A program made the translations under genes and the position numbers. Source: Polyangiales bacterium (GTDB lineage Bacteria; Myxococcota_A; Polyangia; Polyangiales; Ga0077539). Taken from it: 64,000 nt of DNA. Within the stretch, counting starts at the first letter, position 1, and each line of letters starts with the position of its first letter. The notes under the pieces were generated by a model, which was not told where the DNA came from, searched no databases, and saw only the letters and a program-made list of their open reading frames with translations. Shown piece by piece: positions 1 to 11,617 of this stretch. The DNA lies in the NCBI GenBank assembly GCA_044229975.1, contig JBGARZ010000002.1, positions 256,001 to 320,000 on the forward strand, in the 5' to 3' direction.

Positions 1-1382
1 AGACGCTGCGAAGCGCGGTGCCGGTGACCAAGGGGGCGAAGGGCGCGGCGATCAGCGACCAGCGGGTCGAGTCGTTTCCGGGGCTGTGGGACGCGTATCC
101 GCGGCCGCTGCTCACGCTGCTGGCGAAGGCGCGCGCGACGGAGGTGCAGCAGTTTGCGCTGCTGGCGGTGAGACGGCGGCATCCCGATTTGTTGCGTGAG
201 GCGACGGCGCAGGAGCTCGCCGACATGCTGACGGCGGCACACCCGGACGTGTTGGAGCTCGCGGTCAACGAGCTCGATCGGAGGTTCGATCCGGCGAAGC
301 CCGACTGGGCTTTGCTCGAAGCGTTGATGGTCGACGATCGCGCGGTGATTCGTGAGCACGCGGTCGCGATGCTGGCGCGTTGCGCCGATCAGTGGACCTC
401 GGACATCGAGCGGGTGATGCGCTACGTGGGCGCGTCGGACGCGGCGCTCCGATCGACGGCGGCGTCGGTGGTGCTGGCGGCGCTGCCCGCGGCGGACGCG
501 TGGTTTCGTCGCGAGCTTGCCGAGCGGGTGCTGGCGAAGTTGCAGTCCGTGGAGCCGACGGAAGGAGCGCACGATGGCTACGCGCGCGTCGCGCGAGATG
601 GGCTGTCCGAAGAGCTCAACGCCATCCTCGGGCTCGACGAGATTCTCGCGATGATCGACGGCGGGTCGATCGCGGCGAAGGTGGCGGGCGGGGCGCTGCT
701 GGGGTCGCGGCCCGAGGCGGTGGAGACGCTCGGGACCGATCGCATCCTGGCGATGGCGATGAGCGACATCGCGGCGGTGCGGGCGTCGGCGCACGCGCTG
801 CTCCACGGCGCGGTGGCGAAGCTGCGAGCTGATCCGTCGGTGCTCTTCGCGCTGACAGACTCGGAGTGGAAGGACACGCGGACCTTTGCGTTCGAGCTGC
901 TGCGCGGGCCGGTGGACGTCGCGGCGCTGGGCCTCGATGGCATCGTGGGCCTGTGTGATTCCAATCGCGAAGACGTGCAGGGCTTCGGGCGCGAGATGGC
1001 GCTCAAGCACTTCGACGCGCTCGACACCGCGGAGCTGCTGCACCGGCTGGCGGAGCACCCGTCGGCGGTGATTCGTCGCTTCGCGGTCGACCTCGCGGTG
1101 GCGCACTTGAAGGACGGCTTCGTGGCGCTGTCGCGGCTGGAGGCGTTCTTCCGCAGGTCGTTGTTGGACGTGCGGCCTGACCGGCGCGAGAAGCGTCTGG
1201 TGGTGGACTTCCTGCGCGAGCGCGGACTGCGCGACGAGCGGCAGGCAGAGGTCGCGTCGCGGGTGCTGGGTGAGTTCGTGCGGACGCGGGGGAAGGCGGA
1301 CTTCGAGAGCGCGCTCGATGCGCTGGTGCGACTGAAGCTGCGCTACCCCGAGGTCGAGTCGGTGGTCGGAGGTCTCGCGTGA
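1..1382 (+). CDS. HEAT/ARM-repeat alpha-solenoid protein (5'-truncated), putative retron-associated effector component
   Basis: The frame is open back to the window edge. Repeated Leu/Ala-rich helical units end in HEAT-like patterns (e.g. DDRAVIREHAV, SDIAAVRASAH, DSNREDVQGFG, EHPSAVIRRFAV). The stop overlaps the next start (GTGA 1379-1382). Confidence 0.75.
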   Translation, partial: TLRSAVPVTKGAKGAAISDQRVESFPGLWDAYPRPLLTLLAKARATEVQQFALLAVRRRHPDLLREATAQELADMLTAAHPDVLELAVNELDRRFDPAKPDWALLEALMVDDRAVIREHAVAMLARCADQWTSDIERVMRYVGASDAALRSTAASVVLAALPAADAWFRRELAERVLAKLQSVEPTEGAHDGYARVARDGLSEELNAILGLDEILAMIDGGSIAAKVAGGALLGSRPEAVETLGTDRILAMAMSDIAAVRASAHALLHGAVAKLRADPSVLFALTDSEWKDTRTFAFELLRGPVDVAALGLDGIVGLCDSNREDVQGFGREMALKHFDALDTAELLHRLAEHPSAVIRRFAVDLAVAHLKDGFVALSRLEAFFRRSLLDVRPDRREKRLVVDFLRERGLRDERQAEVASRVLGEFVRTRGKADFESALDALVRLKLRYPEVESVVGGLA

Positions 1383-3067
1383 TCGTCGAGTTCAAGTACG
1401 CGGGCCAGAGCGGCATCGTGAGCGGGCTGCGCGACACGCGGGTGGGTCTCGCGACCAACAGCGTGCGCGACCCGGCGTTCTTCAAAGGAGTGATGCGCTC
1501 GCCGACGCTCTTCCGTGAAGGGATGGCGGCGCTCTATTCGGTGGTCGTCAGCGACTACAAGTTTCGCCCGCGCGACCGGCTGGCCTTCAAGGCGTGGCTC
1601 GACCAGCAGGACCAGAAGTTTCTCGCCAACCTGGGCAACCGCACCGAAGACGCCAGGCGACGCATCGCGGCGCTCGAAGCCCGGCGCGATGTGCTCGACC
1701 AGAAGCGCATCGACCGGCTCAAGCCCTTCTACCGGGCGCGCGCCGAGTACTTCGACTGGGTCTACACGCACCAGTACGAGCTGAAGTACCTGCTCGACCC
1801 GGTCATCACGGTGCACCCCGACGAGCTGTCCTTCGAGGCGTTTTCGAAGGACGAGAGCTCGTACGCGCGGGTGGGCGTGAAGTACGACCTCTTCGAGAAG
1901 ATCGACGAGTTCGCGTGCGGCACGACGAACATCGACTTCAGCGCGTCGCTGCACGGTGAGCTCGATCGGATGCGGAGCTATCGCCGTACGCGCTTCGACA
2001 TCGACCCGTCGGGCCTGGCGGTGGCGCGCGAGGGGAGCGCGTCGCACAAGGAGAAGAAGATCGACCTGCCTGAGAGCTGGGTGAAGGGATTTCTCCAGGT
2101 GCAGTCGGCGATGACGCTGGGGCTCACGCGGCTGCGCATCGAGCCGGTGGACCTCTACAACCTCTGCCGCTTTCTCAAGCGCCACAAGGCCAAGGAGTCG
2201 CCGCGGGCGATGCGGTGGGAGCTGGTCCCGGGCAAGCGCGCGCGGGTGGTGTTCGAGCCGTGGGAGGCCGCGGTGGAGATGGGCGCCAGCGCGGTGTACG
2301 ACGGCCCGAAACCGGTGAGCATCCGGACGTGGGGTCGCGATCGGTTGAGCACCCTCGCCCGCATCATCCCGATGGCTCAGCGCATCGACGTGTTTCTCGC
2401 CGGCACGGGGCTGCCGACGGTGTGGCTGGTCGACCTGGGTGAGATCACGTTCACGCTCGCGCTCTCGGGTTGGACCGACAACGACTGGACGGCGGGCACC
2501 GGGCGCTTCGATCTCCTGTCGCGCCGGATGGATGCGTCTCCGTTGGAGCTCGCTTCGACCTGGGATGCCCTCAAGGTGCAGCGGCGTGGCACGGACGTGG
2601 GGCTCTCACAAGCGACGGGCCTGGGGCTGGAGAAGACCCGCAGCGCCCTCTCGTATCTGTGTCAGGTGGGAAGGGCGATGTACGACCTGGGTGGCGGCGT
2701 CTATCGACAACGCGAGTTGTTCGCGGAGCCGTTTACCACCAAGGAGGCGGTGGCCGCGGCGGTGGCGCCTGCGCCGAGCGAGACCTCGCCCGCCGGGCAG
2801 AAGGCGCAGACCATCTTCAACGCGGGGGGCGTGCTCATCACGGCGCGGCGCCCGGTGTCCAATGGATACAAGCTGTCAGGTAGCGTGAAGGGGGTGGACG
2901 GTTATCGGTATCGCCCGATGCTGGGAGTGGACGCCGCGGGGAAGATCCTGGAGGCGACCTGTACTTGCGCCTGGTCGCAGAAGCATGGTCTAACGCAGGG
3001 GCCTTGTGAGCATGTGCTCGCGCTGCGCCTCGGCCACATGCACCGGCTCGAAGCCGAGGGCGCGTAG
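1379..3067 (+). CDS. SWIM zinc-finger domain protein, retron-associated
   Basis: C-terminal CxC...CxH SWIM motif (ATCTCAWSQKHGLTQGPCEHVLAL), an N-terminal coiled-coil-like segment and a possible winged-helix segment (GLSQATGLGLEKTRSALSYL). It lies directly upstream of the retron ncRNA and RT. Confidence 0.85.
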   Translation: MIVEFKYAGQSGIVSGLRDTRVGLATNSVRDPAFFKGVMRSPTLFREGMAALYSVVVSDYKFRPRDRLAFKAWLDQQDQKFLANLGNRTEDARRRIAALEARRDVLDQKRIDRLKPFYRARAEYFDWVYTHQYELKYLLDPVITVHPDELSFEAFSKDESSYARVGVKYDLFEKIDEFACGTTNIDFSASLHGELDRMRSYRRTRFDIDPSGLAVAREGSASHKEKKIDLPESWVKGFLQVQSAMTLGLTRLRIEPVDLYNLCRFLKRHKAKESPRAMRWELVPGKRARVVFEPWEAAVEMGASAVYDGPKPVSIRTWGRDRLSTLARIIPMAQRIDVFLAGTGLPTVWLVDLGEITFTLALSGWTDNDWTAGTGRFDLLSRRMDASPLELASTWDALKVQRRGTDVGLSQATGLGLEKTRSALSYLCQVGRAMYDLGGGVYRQRELFAEPFTTKEAVAAAVAPAPSETSPAGQKAQTIFNAGGVLITARRPVSNGYKLSGSVKGVDGYRYRPMLGVDAAGKILEATCTCAWSQKHGLTQGPCEHVLALRLGHMHRLEAEGA

Positions 3068-3069
3068 GA

Positions 3070-3362
3070 TGTCGAAGGAGGTGTTTCGAGAGGTCGATCG
3101 AGGACGGGGCGTGGTGAGTGCCTTAGCAATCTGTGCGGCGTTACGCCGCGCTTGTCGAAGTGCCCGCCATTCGTCACGAGCCCGTTCATCACACGCGTAC
3201 CCCGACGGTGCCCGGCGCCGTTCTGGTTGGGTGCCTCCGGCACCACGGCGCCATGGCACCATCGGGGTACGCTTTCAGTGGAACGGTCGCGTCCCAGGGA
3301 TGTTCGTAAGCCCACCGCGCCCCGTCCCCGATCGATCCTCGAAGCACCACTCTCTTCCGACA
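3070..3362 (+). ncRNA. Retron msr-msd non-coding RNA
   Basis: Terminal inverted repeat 3080-3116 / 3313-3348 (about 36 bp with 3 G-U pairs, 1 mismatch and 1 bulge, extendable by TGTCG 3070-3074 / CGACA 3358-3362). Small msr-like hairpin GCGGCG-TTA-CGCCGC (3135-3149). Long msd-like hairpin 3195-3272. It sits immediately upstream of a retron-type RT. Confidence 0.9.
3080..3348. repeat. a1/a2 inverted repeats of the retron ncRNA (3080-3116 and 3313-3348)
   Basis: GGTGTTTCGAGAGGTCGATCGAGGACGGGGCGTGGTG pairs base by base with CACCGCGCCCCGTCCCCGATCGATCCTCGAAGCACC. Confidence 0.92.
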
Positions 3363-3375
3363 ACGGAGGTCGCCC

Positions 3376-4761
3376 GTGGCCATTGACCACAAGGCCGCCC
3401 TCTACCGACGCCTCGTGCGCGAGGCGAGCGACGGCGCCGCGGTCGACCGTATGCGCGTCAACGGCTTCTGGCCGTGGGACCAAGGGATCCCCGCCGACCC
3501 GGCCGCCGAGCGGAAGGAGCGGGCCGAGATCGAGGGCGAGATCGCGAAGATCCAGGCCCAGTCGACCAAGGCCATCGACCCCGACAAGGCGCTGGCCCAG
3601 GAGCGCAAGCGGCGCTGGGAGGAGAGCAAGAAGCGCCGCGCGGCGAAGCGCCAGGAGCGCATGGCCAAGGCGAAGAAGCGCCGGGGCGACTTCCTCCTCT
3701 ATCGACAGCGCAACATCCTGCACCTCGGGATGGGCGTCAGCGCCGGGCTTCAGGACACCAATCCCGACACGCGTGAACTCGCGCGGCGCGGACTCCCCGT
3801 CGCCACGCAAGGCGCCGACCTCGCGATGATGATGGGGGTTCCGCTCGGCACGCTGCGCTGGTTGTGCTTCCACCGGAGGGGGGCGGCGCTGGTGCACTAC
3901 CACCGCTTCGGCATCCCCAAGAAGAGTGGCGGCATCCGCGCCATCTCGGCCCCGAAGCCTCGGCTCGCCAACGCGCAACGCTGGGTCTTTCAGAACATCC
4001 TCGAACGCCTCGACGTCGCACCGCCCGCGCATGGCTTCGTGCGGCACCGCTCCATCCTCACCAACGCGACCCCCCACGCAGGTCGCGCCGTGGTGATGAA
4101 CCTCGACCTCAAGGACTTCTTTCCTTCGGTGACGTTTCGTCGCGTGAAGGGGCTCTTCCGCAAGGTCGGATACAACGAGCACGTCGCGACCATCCTCGCG
4201 CTGCTCTGCACCGAACCGCCGCGGGCGAGGGTCGAGGTCGACGGTCGGGTGATCTACCTCGCGCTCGGCGACCGCGTGCTGCCGCAGGGTGCCTGCACCA
4301 GCCCGGCGATCACCAACGCCCTGTGCAAGCGGCTCGATGCGCGTCTGTCGGCGCTCGCGGCGCGACACGACTTCACGTACACGCGCTACGCCGATGACCT
4401 CACGTTCTCGGGAGAAGACGCCGCGCGCGTGGGTCGACTGCGACGCAGCGTGGTGAGCATCGTGACGTCGGAGGGCTTCACCGAAAACGCCGCCAAGACC
4501 CGCGTCATGCACAAGGGGTCGCGGCAGGAGGTGACCGGGCTCACCGTCAACGAGCGGCCGACGATGCCGCGCGACGAGTATCGGCAGCTCCGCGCGATGC
4601 TCCACAACGCGGCGAAGCTCGGCCTGGAGAGCCAGAACCGCGCACACCATCCGGCGTTTGCACAGTACCTCCAGGGACGCGTGGAGTTTGCGTGCTGGGC
4701 CGATCCGACGCGGGCGCCGAAGCTACGAGAGGCCCTCGCGGCTGCCCTCGCGCGAGGCTGA
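3376..4761 (+). CDS. Retron-type reverse transcriptase with N-terminal charged helical extension
   Basis: RT motifs DLKDFFPS, LPQGACTSP and YADD (4387-4398). Retron-specific region X NATPH (4063-4077) and region Y VTG (QEVTGLTVN, 4531-4539). GGAGG RBS at 3365-3369 before the GTG start. Confidence 0.95.
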   Translation: MAIDHKAALYRRLVREASDGAAVDRMRVNGFWPWDQGIPADPAAERKERAEIEGEIAKIQAQSTKAIDPDKALAQERKRRWEESKKRRAAKRQERMAKAKKRRGDFLLYRQRNILHLGMGVSAGLQDTNPDTRELARRGLPVATQGADLAMMMGVPLGTLRWLCFHRRGAALVHYHRFGIPKKSGGIRAISAPKPRLANAQRWVFQNILERLDVAPPAHGFVRHRSILTNATPHAGRAVVMNLDLKDFFPSVTFRRVKGLFRKVGYNEHVATILALLCTEPPRARVEVDGRVIYLALGDRVLPQGACTSPAITNALCKRLDARLSALAARHDFTYTRYADDLTFSGEDAARVGRLRRSVVSIVTSEGFTENAAKTRVMHKGSRQEVTGLTVNERPTMPRDEYRQLRAMLHNAAKLGLESQNRAHHPAFAQYLQGRVEFACWADPTRAPKLREALAAALARG

Positions 4762-4770
4762 CGCCGCGCC

Positions 4771-7605
4771 CTACGGTGGGGCGACGAGCGGCACGGCGGC
4801 GATCATCACCACCGCGAACGCGACGGACGACTGAAGGCTGACGGCGCGCAATCGACGCGGGTCGTCGAAGGTGACGACGAGCTGCTGGGTTCCGCGGCGG
4901 AGCGCGAAGGGCGGGGCGTCTTCCACGGTGAGCGCGCCGGCGTCCCGCGCGTTGATCTGGAGGTAGATGCGCTGCACCGGCGCGGGCTGCCGAGCGCGGA
5001 GGGCGACGCGAACGCGTCGTTGAAAACGCGGGGCGTTGGAGCGCGAGCCGAGGATGGTGTTGCCGGGCTCCTGGGCGCGAGCGAGGAGGTCACCGGCGCG
5101 ATCGAGGGGGTCGTTGGCGCCGAGGCCCGACGCGAGGCGGGGCACGACGTCGGGGTCGCCGAGGCTGATGAGCGCGTCGAGCGCCGCGCGGCGAGTCAAC
5201 GGGTAGCGGGTGCGCGCGAGCGTGGCGACCAGCGGGGGAATCGCGGACGCGTCGCCGAGGGCGCCCAGCGCTTCGGCGCCGACGGGGGCGAGGCGCGGGC
5301 TCTCCAGCAGCGCCTGCCAGGTGGCGCGCGAGGTGGGTGATCGCGCCGCGAGGAGCAACGCGATGGCGCGGTCGCGCTCGGCGTCGGAGGCGTGCTCGTC
5401 GGCCGCCCACGCGTTGAGCACCGGGATCGCCGCGGGGACCCGAAGTGCAGCCAAACCGAGCGCCGCCCTCCGTCGCTGGGCCTCGTCCGACGTCGCGGTG
5501 AGCACGCGGGTGGCGATCTCCTGTCCGCGCGCGTCGCCCAGCATCACGAGCGACACGGCGGCCTCGTCGGACAAGGGCGCCGGTCGCGGCAGCAGCGAGG
5601 CGAGCGCTTCGCGGACCTCCGCCGAGCGGTCGTCGAGGTCACCGAGCACACGCGCTGCTCTCGCCGCGAGCTCGGGGTCGCTGGCGAGTAGCAGCATCGC
5701 GACCTCCCTGGCGGCGTTGCGATCCCCCTGGAGCGCCCGCGCGAGCGCCGCGGGGATGACGGCCTCGGTACGTCGTGAACGCGCCGCTGCTGCGTCGCCG
5801 TGGGCGCCCTCCCAGCCGACGACCAACGATCGCAGCGCTCGCGTTCGTGCGGGGTCTTCGTCGGCGCGGTTGCGGCGCTCGCCGGGGTCGCGGGTGAGGT
5901 CGTAGCGCTCAAGGGTTCCGTCGGCGTTGTCGACGATGAGCTTGTCGTCGCCGTCGACGACCATGCGGAGGGAGCCGGTCTCGGCGAAGGCCAGCGTGGG
6001 CGGGCGATCGGTGGTCGCCAACGCGCCGAGGTCGCTGCCCTCGACGCCGGGAGGGAGCGCGCTTCCGACGCCGCGGAGGATGGTGGGCAGGAGGTCGACC
6101 AGGCTCACCGGCGCGGAGACCACGCGCGGCGTCACGCCCGGCGCGACGATGATGAGCGGAACGCGCGCCTGCTCGTCGTAGAGGGAGGTTCCGTGGAAGG
6201 AGCCGCCGTGCTCGCCGAACTCTTCGCCGTGGTCGGCGGTGATGATCCAGGTGACGGGGCGCGCCCAGCCGTCGATGAGCGCGCCGAGGGCGTCATCGAC
6301 CGCGCTGCATTCGGCGTCGTAGCGGGCGCGGGCGTCGCTTCCGTAGGGGTGCTCCGGGTGGACGACGTAGGGCTCGTGCGGCTCGAAGAGGTGCAGCCAC
6401 GCGAAGCCATGTTGGTCGCGGCGGAGCGTTCGCGACCAGCGGAGGGCGTCCTGCACGCGGGTGTCGGCGGGGGCCCACGACTCGTCGGCCATCTGGAGAT
6501 CCCAATGACGAGAGGCCAACGTGCGGAAGCGATCGCCGTCGACGAAGAAGACCGCCGGCGGGTACCAGCCCGCGGTGGTGTAGCCCGCTTCGCGCAGACG
6601 ACCCGCGAGGGTCATGGTGCGACCGAAGCGCGCGCCGAGGGCCATGGCGGCGCGGGCGTGTGTTCCGGTCATGAGCGAGGCGAGCGAGTAGCTCGTATGC
6701 GGCGTGGCGGTGTACGCACGGCGGAAGAGCAGGCCGCGCGCAGCGAGCGCGTCGAGGCGGGGCATGCGACCGCGACCGCCGAGCGCGCGGAGGGCGTCGG
6801 CGCGAAGTGCGTCGACGGTGACCAGGACCACGTCGCCCTCGGAGAGGGGGAGAGATGCACCGTCGGTGCGGCGGGCGCGGCGGACGACAGGCGTCGCGTC
6901 GTCGCCCGGATGGAGGAGGCCGGCCAGGCGCGCCGTGTACTGGCCGAGCGGCGAGAGGCGTCGCACGGAGGCGCGGGCGCCGTGTCCCGAGAGTAGCGAG
7001 ATCACTGCCCACGTCATCAACGCGACGACGGGCGCGCGAACGAGCCACACGCGACGGCCCGAGGCGCGAGGTTCGTTGAGCGACGCGGCGCCGCACCACG
7101 CGGTCGTCGCGATCCAGGCGAGGAGCGCGTGCAGGAGCTCGTACTGCCGCACCAGCACCGTCGCGTGGATGAGGTAGAGCGCCGTCGCGCCCATCGCGAT
7201 GACCCAGGATGACGCGCGCAGCGGGCGCTCCCGGCGCGCGGCGAGGAGTCCCACGATGGCGCTCGCGACGACCGCGAGTGCAACCAGTGGGCGATGCAGG
7301 CCGAGGCGATGGATGCCCGTTCCGGAGAAGAGGGCGAGGCCCGCCCACGCGCCGAAGCCGGCCGCCGCGAGCGTCGCGACCGCGGGGCGCAGCGACGCGG
7401 GAATGCGCCGCCAGATCGCGGACGCCGCGACGCGAGCGACGCCGACCACCGTCACGGCGAGGGCCGACGCGCCGAGGACCGTGAACAATCCAACGGTCCA
7501 CGCACCCTGTGCATCGCGGGAGAGGGCCATCACGGCGTCGAGCACCGCCGCCGCTCCCGCGACCGCGAGCGTCGCGTCGATGGCCCTCCCGCGCGCGACC
7601 ATCAC
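4771..7605 (-). CDS. Membrane-anchored sulfatase/alkaline-phosphatase-superfamily protein with C-terminal HEAT repeats
   Basis: Several N-terminal TM segments; motifs DVVLVTVDALRAD, HLFEPHEPY, TADHGE and VSLVDLLPT; HEAT-like C-terminus. Confidence 0.8.
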   Translation of the reverse strand: MMVARGRAIDATLAVAGAAAVLDAVMALSRDAQGAWTVGLFTVLGASALAVTVVGVARVAASAIWRRIPASLRPAVATLAAAGFGAWAGLALFSGTGIHRLGLHRPLVALAVVASAIVGLLAARRERPLRASSWVIAMGATALYLIHATVLVRQYELLHALLAWIATTAWCGAASLNEPRASGRRVWLVRAPVVALMTWAVISLLSGHGARASVRRLSPLGQYTARLAGLLHPGDDATPVVRRARRTDGASLPLSEGDVVLVTVDALRADALRALGGRGRMPRLDALAARGLLFRRAYTATPHTSYSLASLMTGTHARAAMALGARFGRTMTLAGRLREAGYTTAGWYPPAVFFVDGDRFRTLASRHWDLQMADESWAPADTRVQDALRWSRTLRRDQHGFAWLHLFEPHEPYVVHPEHPYGSDARARYDAECSAVDDALGALIDGWARPVTWIITADHGEEFGEHGGSFHGTSLYDEQARVPLIIVAPGVTPRVVSAPVSLVDLLPTILRGVGSALPPGVEGSDLGALATTDRPPTLAFAETGSLRMVVDGDDKLIVDNADGTLERYDLTRDPGERRNRADEDPARTRALRSLVVGWEGAHGDAAAARSRRTEAVIPAALARALQGDRNAAREVAMLLLASDPELAARAARVLGDLDDRSAEVREALASLLPRPAPLSDEAAVSLVMLGDARGQEIATRVLTATSDEAQRRRAALGLAALRVPAAIPVLNAWAADEHASDAERDRAIALLLAARSPTSRATWQALLESPRLAPVGAEALGALGDASAIPPLVATLARTRYPLTRRAALDALISLGDPDVVPRLASGLGANDPLDRAGDLLARAQEPGNTILGSRSNAPRFQRRVRVALRARQPAPVQRIYLQINARDAGALTVEDAPPFALRRGTQQLVVTFDDPRRLRAVSLQSSVAFAVVMIAAVPLVAPP

Positions 7606-7608
7606 CGC

Positions 7609-9750
7609 TCAGCCCGCCTCTTCTGCGATGGGGGCGGCGCCGCGTTGCAGGAGTCGACGCACAGCGCGCGAGAGTTGCGGGTGACGGGTGAGCGACGGGT
7701 CGTCGCCGACGATCTCCGTCGCCGCCTCGCGCGCTGCGACCATGAGCGCAGCATCGCGCACCGGGTCGGCGAAGCGCAGCGTCAGATCGGCGCCCGACTG
7801 TCGCTCACCGAACCACTCCCCTGCCCCGCGCCGCGCGAGATCGCGCTCCGCGAGCACGAAGCCGTCGGAGCAGCCCGCGATCTCCTCCAGTCGCGCGTTG
7901 GTCTCTTCTGCCTCGGCCTCGGGGACGAGCAGACAGGCCGCGCGTTGGCCCCCGCGACCGACTCGACCGCGGAGCTGATGCAACTGCGCCACCCCGAAGA
8001 ACTCCGCCCCCAGCACCACCATCAGGTTGGCCTCTGGCACGTCGAGGCCGACCTCCACGACGGTGGTTCCGATGAGCAGCGGGTGCGTGCCGCGGCGGAA
8101 GGCATCGAGCGCATCCTTCTGCGCGTCGGCCGTCATTCGCCCGTGAAGCACCACGATGCGATCGCGGCCCAGCGCCTCGCCCAGCCACGACTCTGCATCG
8201 GCGACACCCGTTCGCGGGCCCTCCTCCTCGTCGGCCATCCCGTCGATGCGCGGAACCACCACGAACACCCGCCCCCCCGCGTCGAGCGCTCGCTCGATGG
8301 TGCGCTGCACGAAGGCCCGATCATCGGCCTTCACCACCCGCGTCGTCACGGGCTGCCGGTTGGCGGGTCGCTCGGCGAGCGTCACGAGGTCGAGGTCGCC
8401 GTAGCGCGCGAGCGCGAGGGTGCGAGGGATGGGCGTGGCCGACAGCACCAGCAGGTGGGGACTGGGCGATCGACCCGCGACCATGGCCAGCCGCTGCGCC
8501 ACGCCGAAGCGGTGCTGCTCGTCGATGACCACGAGGTCGAGCGCGGGAGGCGTTCCGCCCTCTTCGAGGATCGCGTGGGTGCCCACGACCATCCGCACCA
8601 GACCCTCGGCGATGACCTTCTCCGCCTGCCGCCGGGCGCGCGCCGTGGTCGACCCGAGCAGCACCGCCATGGGGCCCGCGTCGCCCGCGAGACCGCGCTC
8701 CAGGGTCTTCGCGTGCTGCGCCGCCACGAGGGTCGTCGGGCAGAGCCACGCGACGCTCCCACCGCCGCGCAGCACCGCCAGCGACGTGGCGAGGGCGACG
8801 GCGGTCTTGCCGGACCCGACATCGCCGACCAGCAAGCGTCGCATCGGCTGACCGCTCGCAAGGTCGCCCAGGAGCGTGTCGATGGCGCTGCGCTGACCGG
8901 CGGTGAGCGAGAGGCCGAGGCGCTGTCCGGTGAGGTCGGCGACGCTTGATGTGTCGGTGAACACCCGCGCGCCGCCGACGGTGCGGCGGGTGCGTTCGTG
9001 GGCCACGCTGACGGCGAGGAGTTCTTCGAAGGCGAGGCGGCGGTGGGCCTCGCTGCGGCCCTCGACGAGCGCGGCGAGGACCTCGGGCGTGACCGATCCA
9101 TCGGGCGCGTGGAGGAGCTTGAGCGAGGCGGGTGCGGACGGCAGCGAGAGCGCGCGGGCGACGGGCGCGGGGACCGGGTCACCCCAGCGGGCGATGCCGG
9201 TGAGCGCGGCGGCGACGATGCGGGCAATGGTTCCGGGCGGGACGCTGCCGATGCCCGCGTAGACGGGCTCGATGGCGCGCGAGCGGGTGCCGGGCGCGAG
9301 CACCTTGGGCTGCACCAGCTCGGGGCCGTTGGGCTGCTGCTTGATGGTACCGGTGAGGCGCACCGTCATGCCGGGCGCGAGCCGCGCGGACATGCCCGCC
9401 TTCGCGTGGAAGAACACCGCGCGCAGCACGGTCGTACCGCGGGGCTCGCGCAGCGCGAGGGTGAGCCGACGGGCGCGCGGGTTGCCCGCGAGGCGGGCGT
9501 CTTCGATGAAGCCCTCTACGGAGACCAGCGTGCCCGACTCGGCGTGGCGCACCCGGCGCCAGTCGTCGGCGCCGCGCAGGTCGAGGTAGCGGCGCGGGAG
9601 GTGCGCGAGGAGGTCGCCCACGGTCGCGAAGCCGCGCGCGCGGAGCACGGTCGCGACGGTCGGACCGACGTGCAACACGCTCTCGATGGGCGCGTCCTGG
9701 AGGTCACCCTCCGGGGGAGGAACGGTCGCGACGACGGGTCGTTCCTTCAT
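7609..9750 (-). CDS. recG: ATP-dependent DNA helicase RecG
   Basis: RLLVGDVGSGKT, DEQHRFG, SATPIPRT, QLHQLRGRVGRG, and an N-terminal OB/wedge region. Confidence 0.95.
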   Translation of the reverse strand: MKERPVVATVPPPEGDLQDAPIESVLHVGPTVATVLRARGFATVGDLLAHLPRRYLDLRGADDWRRVRHAESGTLVSVEGFIEDARLAGNPRARRLTLALREPRGTTVLRAVFFHAKAGMSARLAPGMTVRLTGTIKQQPNGPELVQPKVLAPGTRSRAIEPVYAGIGSVPPGTIARIVAAALTGIARWGDPVPAPVARALSLPSAPASLKLLHAPDGSVTPEVLAALVEGRSEAHRRLAFEELLAVSVAHERTRRTVGGARVFTDTSSVADLTGQRLGLSLTAGQRSAIDTLLGDLASGQPMRRLLVGDVGSGKTAVALATSLAVLRGGGSVAWLCPTTLVAAQHAKTLERGLAGDAGPMAVLLGSTTARARRQAEKVIAEGLVRMVVGTHAILEEGGTPPALDLVVIDEQHRFGVAQRLAMVAGRSPSPHLLVLSATPIPRTLALARYGDLDLVTLAERPANRQPVTTRVVKADDRAFVQRTIERALDAGGRVFVVVPRIDGMADEEEGPRTGVADAESWLGEALGRDRIVVLHGRMTADAQKDALDAFRRGTHPLLIGTTVVEVGLDVPEANLMVVLGAEFFGVAQLHQLRGRVGRGGQRAACLLVPEAEAEETNARLEEIAGCSDGFVLAERDLARRGAGEWFGERQSGADLTLRFADPVRDAALMVAAREAATEIVGDDPSLTRHPQLSRAVRRLLQRGAAPIAEEAG

Positions 9751-9783: not shown

Positions 9784-10266
9784 TCAGCCCTTGAAGCTGA
9801 CTTCGAGCACCTCGTAGGTGCGCTTGCCGCCGGGCGTCTGCACGTTGACCTCGTCGCCGGCCTCGCGCCCGATGAGCTGCTTGGCGATGGGCGACGCGAT
9901 GGAGATGGAGCCGCGCGCGATGTCGGCCTCGGACGGCCCCACGATGCGGTAGGTGACCTCCTCGCCGGTGTCGCTGTTGCTGATGCGAACCGTCGCGCCG
10001 AAGGTGACCTTGGAGCCCTTGAGCTTCGTCGTGTCGATGATCTCGACGCGCCCCATGATGGACTCGAGCTCCGCGATGCGGCCCTCGATGAAGCCCTGCT
10101 TCTCCTTGGCCGCGTGGTACTCGGCGTTTTCCCTCAGGTCGCCGTGCTCGCGCGCCGTCGCGATCTCTTGAATGACCTTCGGGCGCTGCACCGACTTCAG
10201 GTCGCGCAGCTCATCGGTGTGGCGCTGGTGACCTTCGGGCGTGATGGGGACGGTGCCGGTGCTCAT
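9784..10266 (-). CDS. greA: Transcription elongation factor GreA
   Basis: AREHGDLRENAEYHAAK and ISIASPIAKQLIG. The start is taken at ATG 10266; the upstream extension in the ORF track is spurious. Confidence 0.95.
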   Translation of the reverse strand: MSTGTVPITPEGHQRHTDELRDLKSVQRPKVIQEIATAREHGDLRENAEYHAAKEKQGFIEGRIAELESIMGRVEIIDTTKLKGSKVTFGATVRISNSDTGEEVTYRIVGPSEADIARGSISIASPIAKQLIGREAGDEVNVQTPGGKRTYEVLEVSFKG

Positions 10267-10330
10267 GGTTCCACTCTGGTACCAGAACAGTGCCCCTTCG
10301 CAAGCAATGCTTTCGACGGCCGCGCCCGCG

Positions 10331-11617
10331 CTATCGCTGGCCCGCGCAGGTGAAGCGCGCGACCTCGGCGCCGCCCTCTCCAACGCGTCCGATCCACGCC
10401 GTCGCCCGCTCGTCGACCCACGTCGGCAAGGCCGCCCCCAGCGCCGGCTCGACCCACGCGGACAGCGCTCCCTGCTGAGGTCGCCCCGACGCATCCACGC
10501 CCCGGTGCCGCACCTCCACACGCTCGCCCACGCGCTCACGCCACCAGATCTCGACGGACGCTCCCGGACCCAGCGCGCGCGTGACTCGCGGCGCTCCCGT
10601 GGGGTTGGCGCCGTCATCGGAGAGCACCGCGACGTCGCCTGCGTGCGTCAACCCGGCAGGCCCGACATCGACGCGCACTGCGCGCACCTCGCCGCCGTCT
10701 CCGCGCCCCTCGCTGTCACTCGGGCCGCCGCCACGAAACGCCACCCACACCGCATCGGAGCCCGCGAGCGCCGCGAGGCCGAAGTGGTGATCGACCGCGC
10801 GCGTCACCCGTAGCGGCACGCCCAGGGGCGCACCTGTTGTGCTGACCGCGACGCCCCAGACATCCGTCGCCGTGTCGTTGGACTCCGACGCGTCCACGTC
10901 CCTCGCCGTCAGCCAGAACACCGCCGCGCGCCCGCCCGGCAACGCCACGACGGTCGGGTCGGTCGCGTCTTGCGCGGCGGGCGAGAGCGCGCGCGGAGGA
11001 CCGCAGCGGAGGCCCGTCGGCGTGGGCGTCGCGACCTGCACGCGAATGCTTCCGGCGGCGGGCGCGGGGCCGTCCTCGTCCCACGCGACGATCCATCCAT
11101 GGGCGAGTCCCGCGAGCGCGAGCGAGAGACCCTCGTCCCTCCCCTCGGGCACCACGCAGCGACCGGCGTCTCCGTCCGCGGTCCAGACGATGTGTTCGCG
11201 CACTGCCATTCCGGAGCGCACCCAGGCCGCCGCGAGGGCGCCCGTCCCGTCGACGGCCAGCACGGGGTCGGACCGCTCGCCGACGCCGCTGCTCACCCGA
11301 CCGACGGTGGGGTCGGGGTACGACCAGTGCCCGAGCGAGTCGGCGCCCGAGACGCTCCAGAAGGTCCTGACCCCGCGGGCACCCGGCGCGATGACCAGCG
11401 CTTCGAGGCCGCCGTCGGCCGCCTGTCCGAGCGTGGGAATCGGCGTGACTCCCAACCGACGACACGCCGTCCGCACCGGAGGAGCGTCCAGGCGGGGAGA
11501 CGGAAGAATGGGGTCGTCGCCCTCGCCCGCGTCGTCGGCGAACACGGGCGGCGGGCGGTGACAGCCGCGGCCGCAGCCTGTGGTGAGAAGCGCCAGCATG
11601 AGCGTCCAGACCCGCAT
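10331..11617 (-). CDS. Hypothetical lipoprotein, probable beta-propeller
   Basis: Lipobox-like LLTTGC after a hydrophobic stretch; repeated short beta-strand patterns (AAAW, IVAW, AVFW, WVAF). Confidence 0.6.
   Translation of the reverse strand: MRVWTLMLALLTTGCGRGCHRPPPVFADDAGEGDDPILPSPRLDAPPVRTACRRLGVTPIPTLGQAADGGLEALVIAPGARGVRTFWSVSGADSLGHWSYPDPTVGRVSSGVGERSDPVLAVDGTGALAAAWVRSGMAVREHIVWTADGDAGRCVVPEGRDEGLSLALAGLAHGWIVAWDEDGPAPAAGSIRVQVATPTPTGLRCGPPRALSPAAQDATDPTVVALPGGRAAVFWLTARDVDASESNDTATDVWGVAVSTTGAPLGVPLRVTRAVDHHFGLAALAGSDAVWVAFRGGGPSDSEGRGDGGEVRAVRVDVGPAGLTHAGDVAVLSDDGANPTGAPRVTRALGPGASVEIWWRERVGERVEVRHRGVDASGRPQQGALSAWVEPALGAALPTWVDERATAWIGRVGEGGAEVARFTCAGQR

Follow-up and report, generated by a model that had tools for sequence, protein, structure and literature searches.

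The interval 3070-3362 on the forward strand of the window (the whole 64,000-nt stretch of DNA analysed here) is the msr-msd non-coding RNA gene of a type XIII retron, in agreement with a preliminary description that had read it as a retron msr-msd from the letters alone. The retron belongs to a gene cluster that opens with a PARP gene followed by a macrodomain gene, and we consider it probable that a conserved bulge in its msd, in DNA form, binds accessory proteins and helps to control the PARP. The RNA gene takes up the space between the SWIM stop codon and the reverse transcriptase (RT) gene, and the order on the forward strand is WGR/HEAT, SWIM, ncRNA and RT. The WGR-like/HEAT-ARM accessory gene encodes 844 aa, starts before the window (L051:8848) and occupies positions 1-1382 (+) with its 3′ part (PADLOC WGR_XIII, E 2.9e-104, and HEAT-ARM_XIII). 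It is followed by the SWIM zinc-finger accessory gene of 562 aa (1379-3067, +; PADLOC SWIM_XIII, E 2.8e-181, and Pfam SWIM), whose protein carries a CxCx12CxH motif at aa 528; in an Atlas neighbour cluster, WHD_DprA was found in 13% of the members, which is a lead only for a winged helix in the SWIM protein. Behind the RNA, a GGAGG ribosome-binding-like site (3365-3369, +) precedes the gene of the retron RT, a protein of 461 aa with an extended N-terminus (3376-4761, +; PADLOC RT_XIII, E 4.8e-158). Its best PADLOC model, RT_XIII, reached 525 bits compared to 364 for the next model, NATPH was found at aa 230, YADD at 338 and VTG at 386, Pfam RVT_1 matched, and in a quick tree the protein fell among SWIM-linked RTs, with three outgroup RTs standing apart. 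Because the PADLOC models WGR_XIII, SWIM_XIII and RT_XIII were matched in the gene arrangement of Mestre et al. (PMC7736814, as far as its accessible text goes), the locus is assigned to type XIII, with a clade 10 RT, a linked SWIM gene and a WGR-like/HEAT-ARM gene before it. Two overlapping ORFs (3006-3386 and 3152-3829) were not accepted as genes, judged from the RNA-type covariation.

The 293-nt interval folds at -176.8 kcal/mol, compared to -118.9 ± 5.3 kcal/mol for shuffled sequences (z -10.86, 0 of 200 as low). All helices of the preliminary description were present when each pair was checked, and 3122-3125/3307-3310, 3127-3129/3152-3154 and 3176-3178/3290-3292 are added to them here. 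The outer stem joins the a1 arm (3080-3116, +) to 3313-3348 through 35 pairs, three of them G-U, and is interrupted twice, by a bulged A at 3091 and by an A-C mismatch at 3101/3328; the pair probability was at least 0.98 for 34 of the 35 pairs and 0.77 for the outermost one. A weaker extension continues outwards (3070-3079/3351-3362, pair probability 0.58-0.96), and a2, including its side of the inner helix (3307-3310), spans 3307-3348 (+). The stem had been called unusually long. This holds against the approximately 8-30 bases given in the accessible text of PMC6868368, but not within the subfamily, where the window has 44 high-probability a1/a2 pairs compared to 18-52 pairs overall (median 33; n = 29); the stem is toward the long side of its subfamily, yet not special.

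Related loci were collected from GTDB contigs (15), from relatives (an RT match in 23 of 41 genomes), from metagenomes (80 kept of 557) and from two further genomes. Sequence motifs served to anchor 29 ncRNAs of one subfamily, among them L094 through a fallback rule slightly favouring pairing; near-duplicates (L005, L006, L007, L044, L100) and sequences without an anchor (L090, L091, L096) were removed before the counts, L087 was counted with L086, and L177 was omitted from the stem measurement in the sister lineage. Alignment A3, made on sequence alone, holds 27 of the 29, with L001 and L089 omitted because of insertions. When the structure derived from the window was laid over these 27 homologues, 84.1% of the cells were paired, compared to 68.5% after shuffling and 33-43% in slid controls. 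Compensatory changes occurred at 42 of 61 pairs and none of 500 shuffles reached any of the measures, in controls that leave relatedness in and for a structure derived from a single member. The covariation among homologues that the preliminary description had named as the check on its fold is therefore present, and RNAalifold independently recovered the msr hairpin, the msd stems and the tip, though not the 4-bp inner helix. Five planctomycete RNAs fetched after the analysis served as a held-out check.

In a genome of ~70% GC, one might suspect a repeat element or a GC-rich inverted repeat that arose by chance and has no connection to the RT, the more so as Rfam yielded no retron family, and only chance matches to miRNA, CRISPR-repeat and snoRNA families below the gathering score. 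Such an origin is hardly conceivable and is refuted by the covariation: the fold has a z of -10.9, the covariance model built from the homologues found a single copy of the ncRNA in the 10-Mb genome, and in more than 30 loci the ncRNA accompanies a related RT. The features expected of a retron were found together, namely an adjacent ncRNA with complementary a1/a2 ends, an msr hairpin and a long msd stem-loop.

Several loci deviate from this layout. The insertions in L001 (5734-5970) and L089 (8754-8970) measure 35 and 14 nt; they follow the branch G and precede the msr hairpin, and the longer one folds into an extra hairpin. L090 and L091 hold subfamily RTs without SWIM and without an upstream ncRNA, and in L090 a weak covariance-model match lies directly after the RT (6429-6651, 29 bits). 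Tandem complete ncRNA copies that differ in their msd stems precede one RT in L081 (1560-1763 and 1890-2094) and L010 (5464-5663 and 5731-5930). Members of the sister (Mx162-like) lineage often carry two to four msr-msd motifs, mostly ~270-360 nt apart (G604:C5:1214490-1215448, G645:C129, G596:C22, G705:C75, G512:C43, L050/L065), which suggests ncRNA arrays. Genome G000 also contains five equal-scoring copies of another RT with 515-aa frames (C4, C14, C32 and two places in C34), which probably represent a mobile element, for instance a group II intron.

The RT very probably primes on G3126 (+) in TTAGC, the position that the preliminary description had kept as its second choice. This G was present in 27/27 aligned homologues, as was C3127 next to it, and it directly follows the inner a1/a2 helix formed by 3122-3125 (+) and 3307-3310. 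In this helix, 107 of 116 cells were paired (82.2 ± 3.0 when shuffled; 0 of 10,000 as high) and four of four pairs showed compensatory changes, with swaps between A-U and G-C, between U-A, G-C and C-G, and between U-A, C-G and G-C. The held-out planctomycete RNAs had 17 of 20 cells paired and G-C at the branch site in 5/5, one of them with a new C-G pair adjoining the G. According to the accessible text of PMC6868368, TAGC is the commonest context of the priming G and the a1/a2 stem ends just 5′ of it, and that of PMC10849725 states that the branching G is often preceded by TTA and that the first RT-DNA base is most often G. Because G3126 is invariant, stands in TAGC and directly follows a covarying 4-bp helix, it is the predicted branching guanosine. 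Copying would begin at C3305, the predicted first templating base, beside an unpaired G3306 opposite the branch G (3305-3306, +; G at the latter position in 26/27 aligned homologues), and both the priming and the start site fit the statements of the two papers. The first proposal, in which G3118 primes and copying starts near 3310, draws on the location of G3118 only 2 nt past the long stem and on the minimum-energy fold of the window, which lacks the 4-bp inner helix. It is nevertheless very improbable, as the position is G in only 10/29 homologues and 0/5 held-out RNAs (a column 8 nt before G3126 that is only roughly homologous, the internal loop varying in length) and 3307-3310 covaries with 3122-3125, leading up to an invariant G in TAGC.

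The msr stem-loop (3127-3154, +) consists of the hairpin 3133-3151, which is as previously described and had 100% of its cells paired, and of the surrounding helix 3127-3129/3152-3154, with five compensatory cells at the second pair. The msd forms one long hairpin of 117 nt (3176-3292, +), and 113-119 nt were found in 29/29 homologues. Its base, 3176-3178/3290-3292, was paired in 27/27 with one compensatory change and begins six bases before the first helix of the preliminary description. The helices 3182-3187/3281-3286, 3195-3205/3262-3272, 3207-3212/3255-3260, 3214-3221/3245-3252 and 3230-3235/3239-3244 are exact reverse complements (probability 0.83-1.0), and the middle stems vary freely in sequence yet keep pairing. 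Counted in the RNA sense in 25 of the 27 sequences (L003 and L004 omitted), the msr helices held 38 G-U and 0 A-C oppositions compared to 6 G-U and 36 A-C in the msd stems, the A-C excess being concentrated in few columns whose cells are not independent. Since A-C in the RNA sense corresponds to G-T in the copied DNA, the msd appears to be selected to fold as DNA, and the hairpin likely folds as reverse-strand DNA. An alternative fold through the duplicated GGTGCC/GGCACC hexamers had been suggested, but it is 14-16 kcal/mol worse (14.1-15.6 kcal/mol as RNA, 14.2-16.4 as DNA) with a probability of ~1e-10, and the duplicated hexamer occurs in 4/29 homologues, three of them near-identical; this fold is rejected. 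An 8-nt near-repeat, TTCGTCAC (3170-3177) and TTCATCAC (3185-3192), flanks the base of the msd stem and is often exact in the homologues.

The RT would stop in a zone of RNA-DNA overlap before the msd (3161-3175, +), where GC at 3162-3163 and CAxxCGTC at 3168-3175 are conserved. A stop at the conserved block starting at 3168 gives an RT-DNA of 138 nt. In the sister lineage, represented by the Archangium, Hyalangium and Sorangium RTs, the msd stems measure 127-129 nt and are followed by a tail of 16-17 nt to the opposite G, counted by eye from printed sequences. We take Mx162 to belong to this lineage. Its msd is given as 162 nt in the accessible part of PMC6868368; if it shares the sister-lineage geometry, its stop would lie 4-7 nt before the shared CAT-like motif. 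Transferred to the window, a weak calibration, such a stop would fall at 3161-3164 and give an RT-DNA of 142-145 nt. The RT-DNA is thus probably 138-145 nt long with its 3′ end in this zone, and the 130-150 nt estimated before contain the new range. The earlier template start at about 3310 is replaced by C3305.

Close to the tip, the msd stem is interrupted by an 8-nt one-sided bulge, TCTGGTTG (3222-3229, +), which is as described before and has an invariant CTG(G) at 3223-3226. The element is under selection, with CTG in 27/27 and the next G in 26/27 aligned homologues and CTGG in 5/5 held-out ones. It lies 46-50 nt from the stem base in 29/29 homologues and adjoins a 6-bp tip hairpin with a 3-nt loop (3230-3244, +), in which six of six pairs showed compensatory changes and 93.8% of the cells were paired. 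We regard the bulge as real because its CTG never varies and keeps a set distance to the stem base, even as the stems on either side covary. When folded as DNA, the T position was predicted to be unpaired in 29/29 (probability at least 0.69), and both G positions of the motif in 23/29, being mostly paired in 6/29; the CTGG motif was partly paired in the held-out L231, L233 and L235. Pairing of the bulge with CCAG at 3294-3297 was dropped, since the CCAG stretch varies in the alignment and the bulge is constant. Conservation within an unpaired element at a fixed distance points to a protein contact, and the stem of fixed length can plausibly be seen as a ruler positioning the bulge for a protein partner, a reading we hold to be rather probable. 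Other type XIII lineages match the covariance model of the window weakly (29-92 bits). By inspection, L009-L015, L103-L105, L129, L133 and L167-L168, which represent such lineages, each have their own conserved irregular msd tip, and the tip sequence may track the type of accessory protein. The group with the CTG bulge was not resolved as one clade in the quick tree of 116 RTs.

For better comparison with known systems, the type XIII retrons of clade 10 come first (Retron-Mxa1/Mx162, Mxa2/Mx65, Sau1/Sa163 and Nex2/Ne144; accessible part of PMC7736814). They share with the window the WGR-like/HEAT-ARM and SWIM genes, the ncRNA and an RT with an extended N-terminus, and in both the a1/a2 stem ends just 5′ of the G in AGC and is followed by an msr hairpin and one long msd stem-loop. 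In contrast, the PARP and macrodomain genes that head the window's cluster are absent from the type XIII table rows of that source, and the CTG(G) bulge with its 6-bp tip is specific to the window's lineage. The window RT is ~46-51% identical to those of the Archangium/Hyalangium/Sorangium lineage, from which its msd stem of 117 nt also differs, and 62% identical to P0033, named Tautonia plasticadhaerens RT at NCBI, so that a host in culture is available. Retron-Eco1 (Ec86) and other tested retrons, as far as covered by the accessible text of PMC6868368 and PMC10849725, resemble the window in the TTA before the branching G, in the NAxxH, YADD and VTG motifs and in a first RT-DNA base G, which is predicted here; the window has a longer a1/a2 stem and msd and other accessory genes, and defence was shown for those systems. 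The first msDNA to be discovered, in Myxococcus in 1984 (as cited in PMC6868368), belongs to type XIII, and for this type no demonstrated function was found in the literature within reach. The word bulge is absent from the main text of PMC7736814, whose supplement with consensus structures and cluster tables could differ.

Upstream of the window and on the same strand, a gene for a WGR-PARP_reg-PARP protein of 482 aa (L051:6552-8000; Pfam) and a macrodomain gene of 260 aa (L051:8012-8794) directly precede the WGR/HEAT gene, with gaps of 11 nt between PARP and macrodomain gene and 53 nt between macrodomain and WGR/HEAT gene. The PARP keeps the catalytic triad H-Y-E (H355-Y394-E463); its best solved relative is human PARP4 (8sx1, E 7.6e-43), and it matches PARP2 over residues 28-426. 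Judged from its sequence, it has the domain set of the DNA-dependent, PARP1/2-like enzymes, i.e., a WGR, a regulatory helical and a catalytic domain. The bacterial PARPs of Herpetosiphon aurantiacus and Clostridioides difficile CD160 (accessible text of PMC8120803) and human PARP4 and PARP2 share WGR, PARP_reg and H-Y-E with it; the retron-linked PARP differs in having a macrodomain gene beside it and a retron in its cluster. According to that review, neither the target nor the function of bacterial PARPs is known; it describes DNA-dependent and WGR-dependent activation of a bacterial PARP and, in the same accessible text, mentions retrons 0 times. Among the papers searched, outside of which most subscription papers lay, none paired a retron with a PARP, a macrodomain or a WGR protein, and PARP, macro and ADP-ribos occur 0 times in the accessible text of PMC13712802. 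Two more PARP genes in G000 (C11:407536-408120 and C24:121128-121472) are ~26% identical to the retron-linked one.

The PARP and macrodomain genes were found adjacent, upstream of the retron, in 28 of 38 subfamily loci from Myxococcota, Planctomycetota and Acidobacteriota, a count that includes eight close kin of the window (seven genomes and L100) and overstates independence; the other ten loci comprise three with the macrodomain gene only and seven with neither. With regard to the 28 genomes, the pair lies directly upstream in 19 (G000-G005, G007, G014, G015, G021, G752, G753, G780, G892, G912, G928, G956, G968 and G1054; the contig ends before the RT in G007, G015, G780 and G892), the macrodomain gene alone in two (G018, G254), and neither gene in seven (G011, G012, G019, G020, G023, G274, G894), all seven of which keep a PARP orthologue elsewhere. 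No PARP orthologue was found in the genome of G018. Distinct metagenome loci with enough flank had the pair in 9/10 and only the macrodomain gene in 1/10. In a sample of 301 planctomycete genomes around G752, a PARP orthologue was present in 8/8 genomes with an RT match, the sample centre G752 included, compared to 4 of the 293 others, and in one of these four the cluster is complete, though its RT is frameshifted. PARP matches were absent from nine genomes (6 + 3) in which the type XIII RTs retrieved were those of other lineages, and no PARP lay within ~8.5 kb in 11 metagenome loci of other lineages, a weak result given that accessory genes can reach further. PARP-linked loci sit on deep and shallow branches of the quick tree of 116 RTs. 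An ADP-ribosylglycohydrolase directly follows the RT in eight loci, and in L095 (10384-13440), L098 (10443-13799) and L101 (10490-13732) an ADP-ribosylglycohydrolase fused to an NAD-dependent DNA ligase was found after the RT; the window genome has none after the RT and four elsewhere. Split alignments for SWIM, RT or PARP in L055 (G018), L059 (G021) and L243 (G956) represent decay or assembly error.

From this arrangement, the retron and the PARP/macrodomain pair have a somewhat better than even chance of being functionally linked. The RT would bind the msr hairpin, prime on G3126 and copy from C3305 back to approximately 3162-3168, which would yield a branched DNA of ~140 nt. The rigid msd stem would present the bulge to the SWIM or the WGR/HEAT protein, and the assembled complex would restrain the PARP for as long as the DNA stays undisturbed. 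If phage infection then damaged or removed the msDNA, NAD-consuming ADP-ribosylation would be released, to be reversed by the macrodomain and, in some relatives, by the ADP-ribosylglycohydrolase. This mechanism for the link is offered tentatively: its RNA-making half is well supported by comparison, and its PARP-control half draws on gene context only. That a freed DNA 5′ end would be the activating signal follows the example of eukaryotic PARP2/3. A bolder version, which we think rather unlikely, is a six-part subtype of PARP, macrodomain, WGR/HEAT, SWIM, ncRNA and RT, in which the msDNA is both a ruler of fixed length and a capped decoy. Its 5′ end, tied to RNA, would hold a PARP of the eukaryotic type silent, and cutting or debranching would expose a DNA end and switch ADP-ribosylation on until the erasers of the cluster reverse it.

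The surroundings of the locus bear on these readings. Downstream, on the opposite strand, lies a sulfatase-HEAT gene (4771-7605, -), followed by what are presumably RecG-like (7609-9750, -) and GreA-like (9784-10617, -) ORFs, and no defence island was seen among these neighbours. PADLOC made no defence call on the PARP, the macrodomain protein and the flanking ORFs tested besides weak helicase-type matches, and 30 pattern matches on viral contigs included none encoding a relative. A promoter scan returned 0 sigma-70-like sites over the cluster, and terminator-like matches were near chance (6 compared to 3.4 ± 2.0). Small shares of the stretch (0.06-0.19) were matched by 17 sequencing runs; four RNA runs gave contigs of relatives, mostly less than 95% alike and in some cases covering 3122-3344, which are uninformative on ends, strand and transcription. 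Because of the non-defence neighbours, the lack of a viral relative among those contigs and the vertical inheritance of type XIII retrons reported in the accessible text of PMC7736814, the cluster fits a typical mobile defence system poorly. The neighbours and the inheritance also keep alive two accounts that do without a phage-triggered PARP.

One of these, to which we give a minor share of the probability, sees an ordinary type XIII retron whose bulge serves only the RT, SWIM or HEAT proteins, next to a PARP-macrodomain pair that is an independent unit of shared ancestry and often shared location. It would explain why the two genes remain neighbours at a site other than the retron locus in G011, G012, G019, G020 and G023, why three planctomycete genomes (G1022, G858, G966) have the PARP without this retron beside it, and why other type XIII lineages have conserved tip motifs of their own and no PARP. 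However, it sits less well with the same gene order and tight spacing in three phyla, with the co-occurrence in the planctomycete sample, with a second ADP-ribose eraser after the RT in eight loci, and with the PARP being kept elsewhere in all seven genomes that lack the adjacent pair. The other account, to which we assign a similarly modest weight, lets retron and PARP act jointly in DNA-break signalling or repair, with the msDNA as a standing ligand or scaffold of the PARP and with erasers and ligase finishing the task. The ligase fusions, the non-defence neighbours, the vertical inheritance and the DNA-dependent activation of a bacterial PARP are all in its favour; the fusion, however, occurs in three loci only and not beside the window RT, and tested retrons are described as phage-defence systems in the literature accessible to us. 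A retron whose msd bulge acts through accessory proteins on the PARP is still the reading we prefer.

The RNA itself adds a well-resolved member to a known retron type, with the branch point, the start site and one invariant bulge now pinned by covariation, and its wider context matters more. If the decoy version were true, the PARP output of this retron would be reversible, and the cluster would supply a defined native trigger for a bacterial PARP. With a recurrent retron-PARP cluster at hand, both the function of type XIII retrons and the role of bacterial PARPs become testable with one construct.
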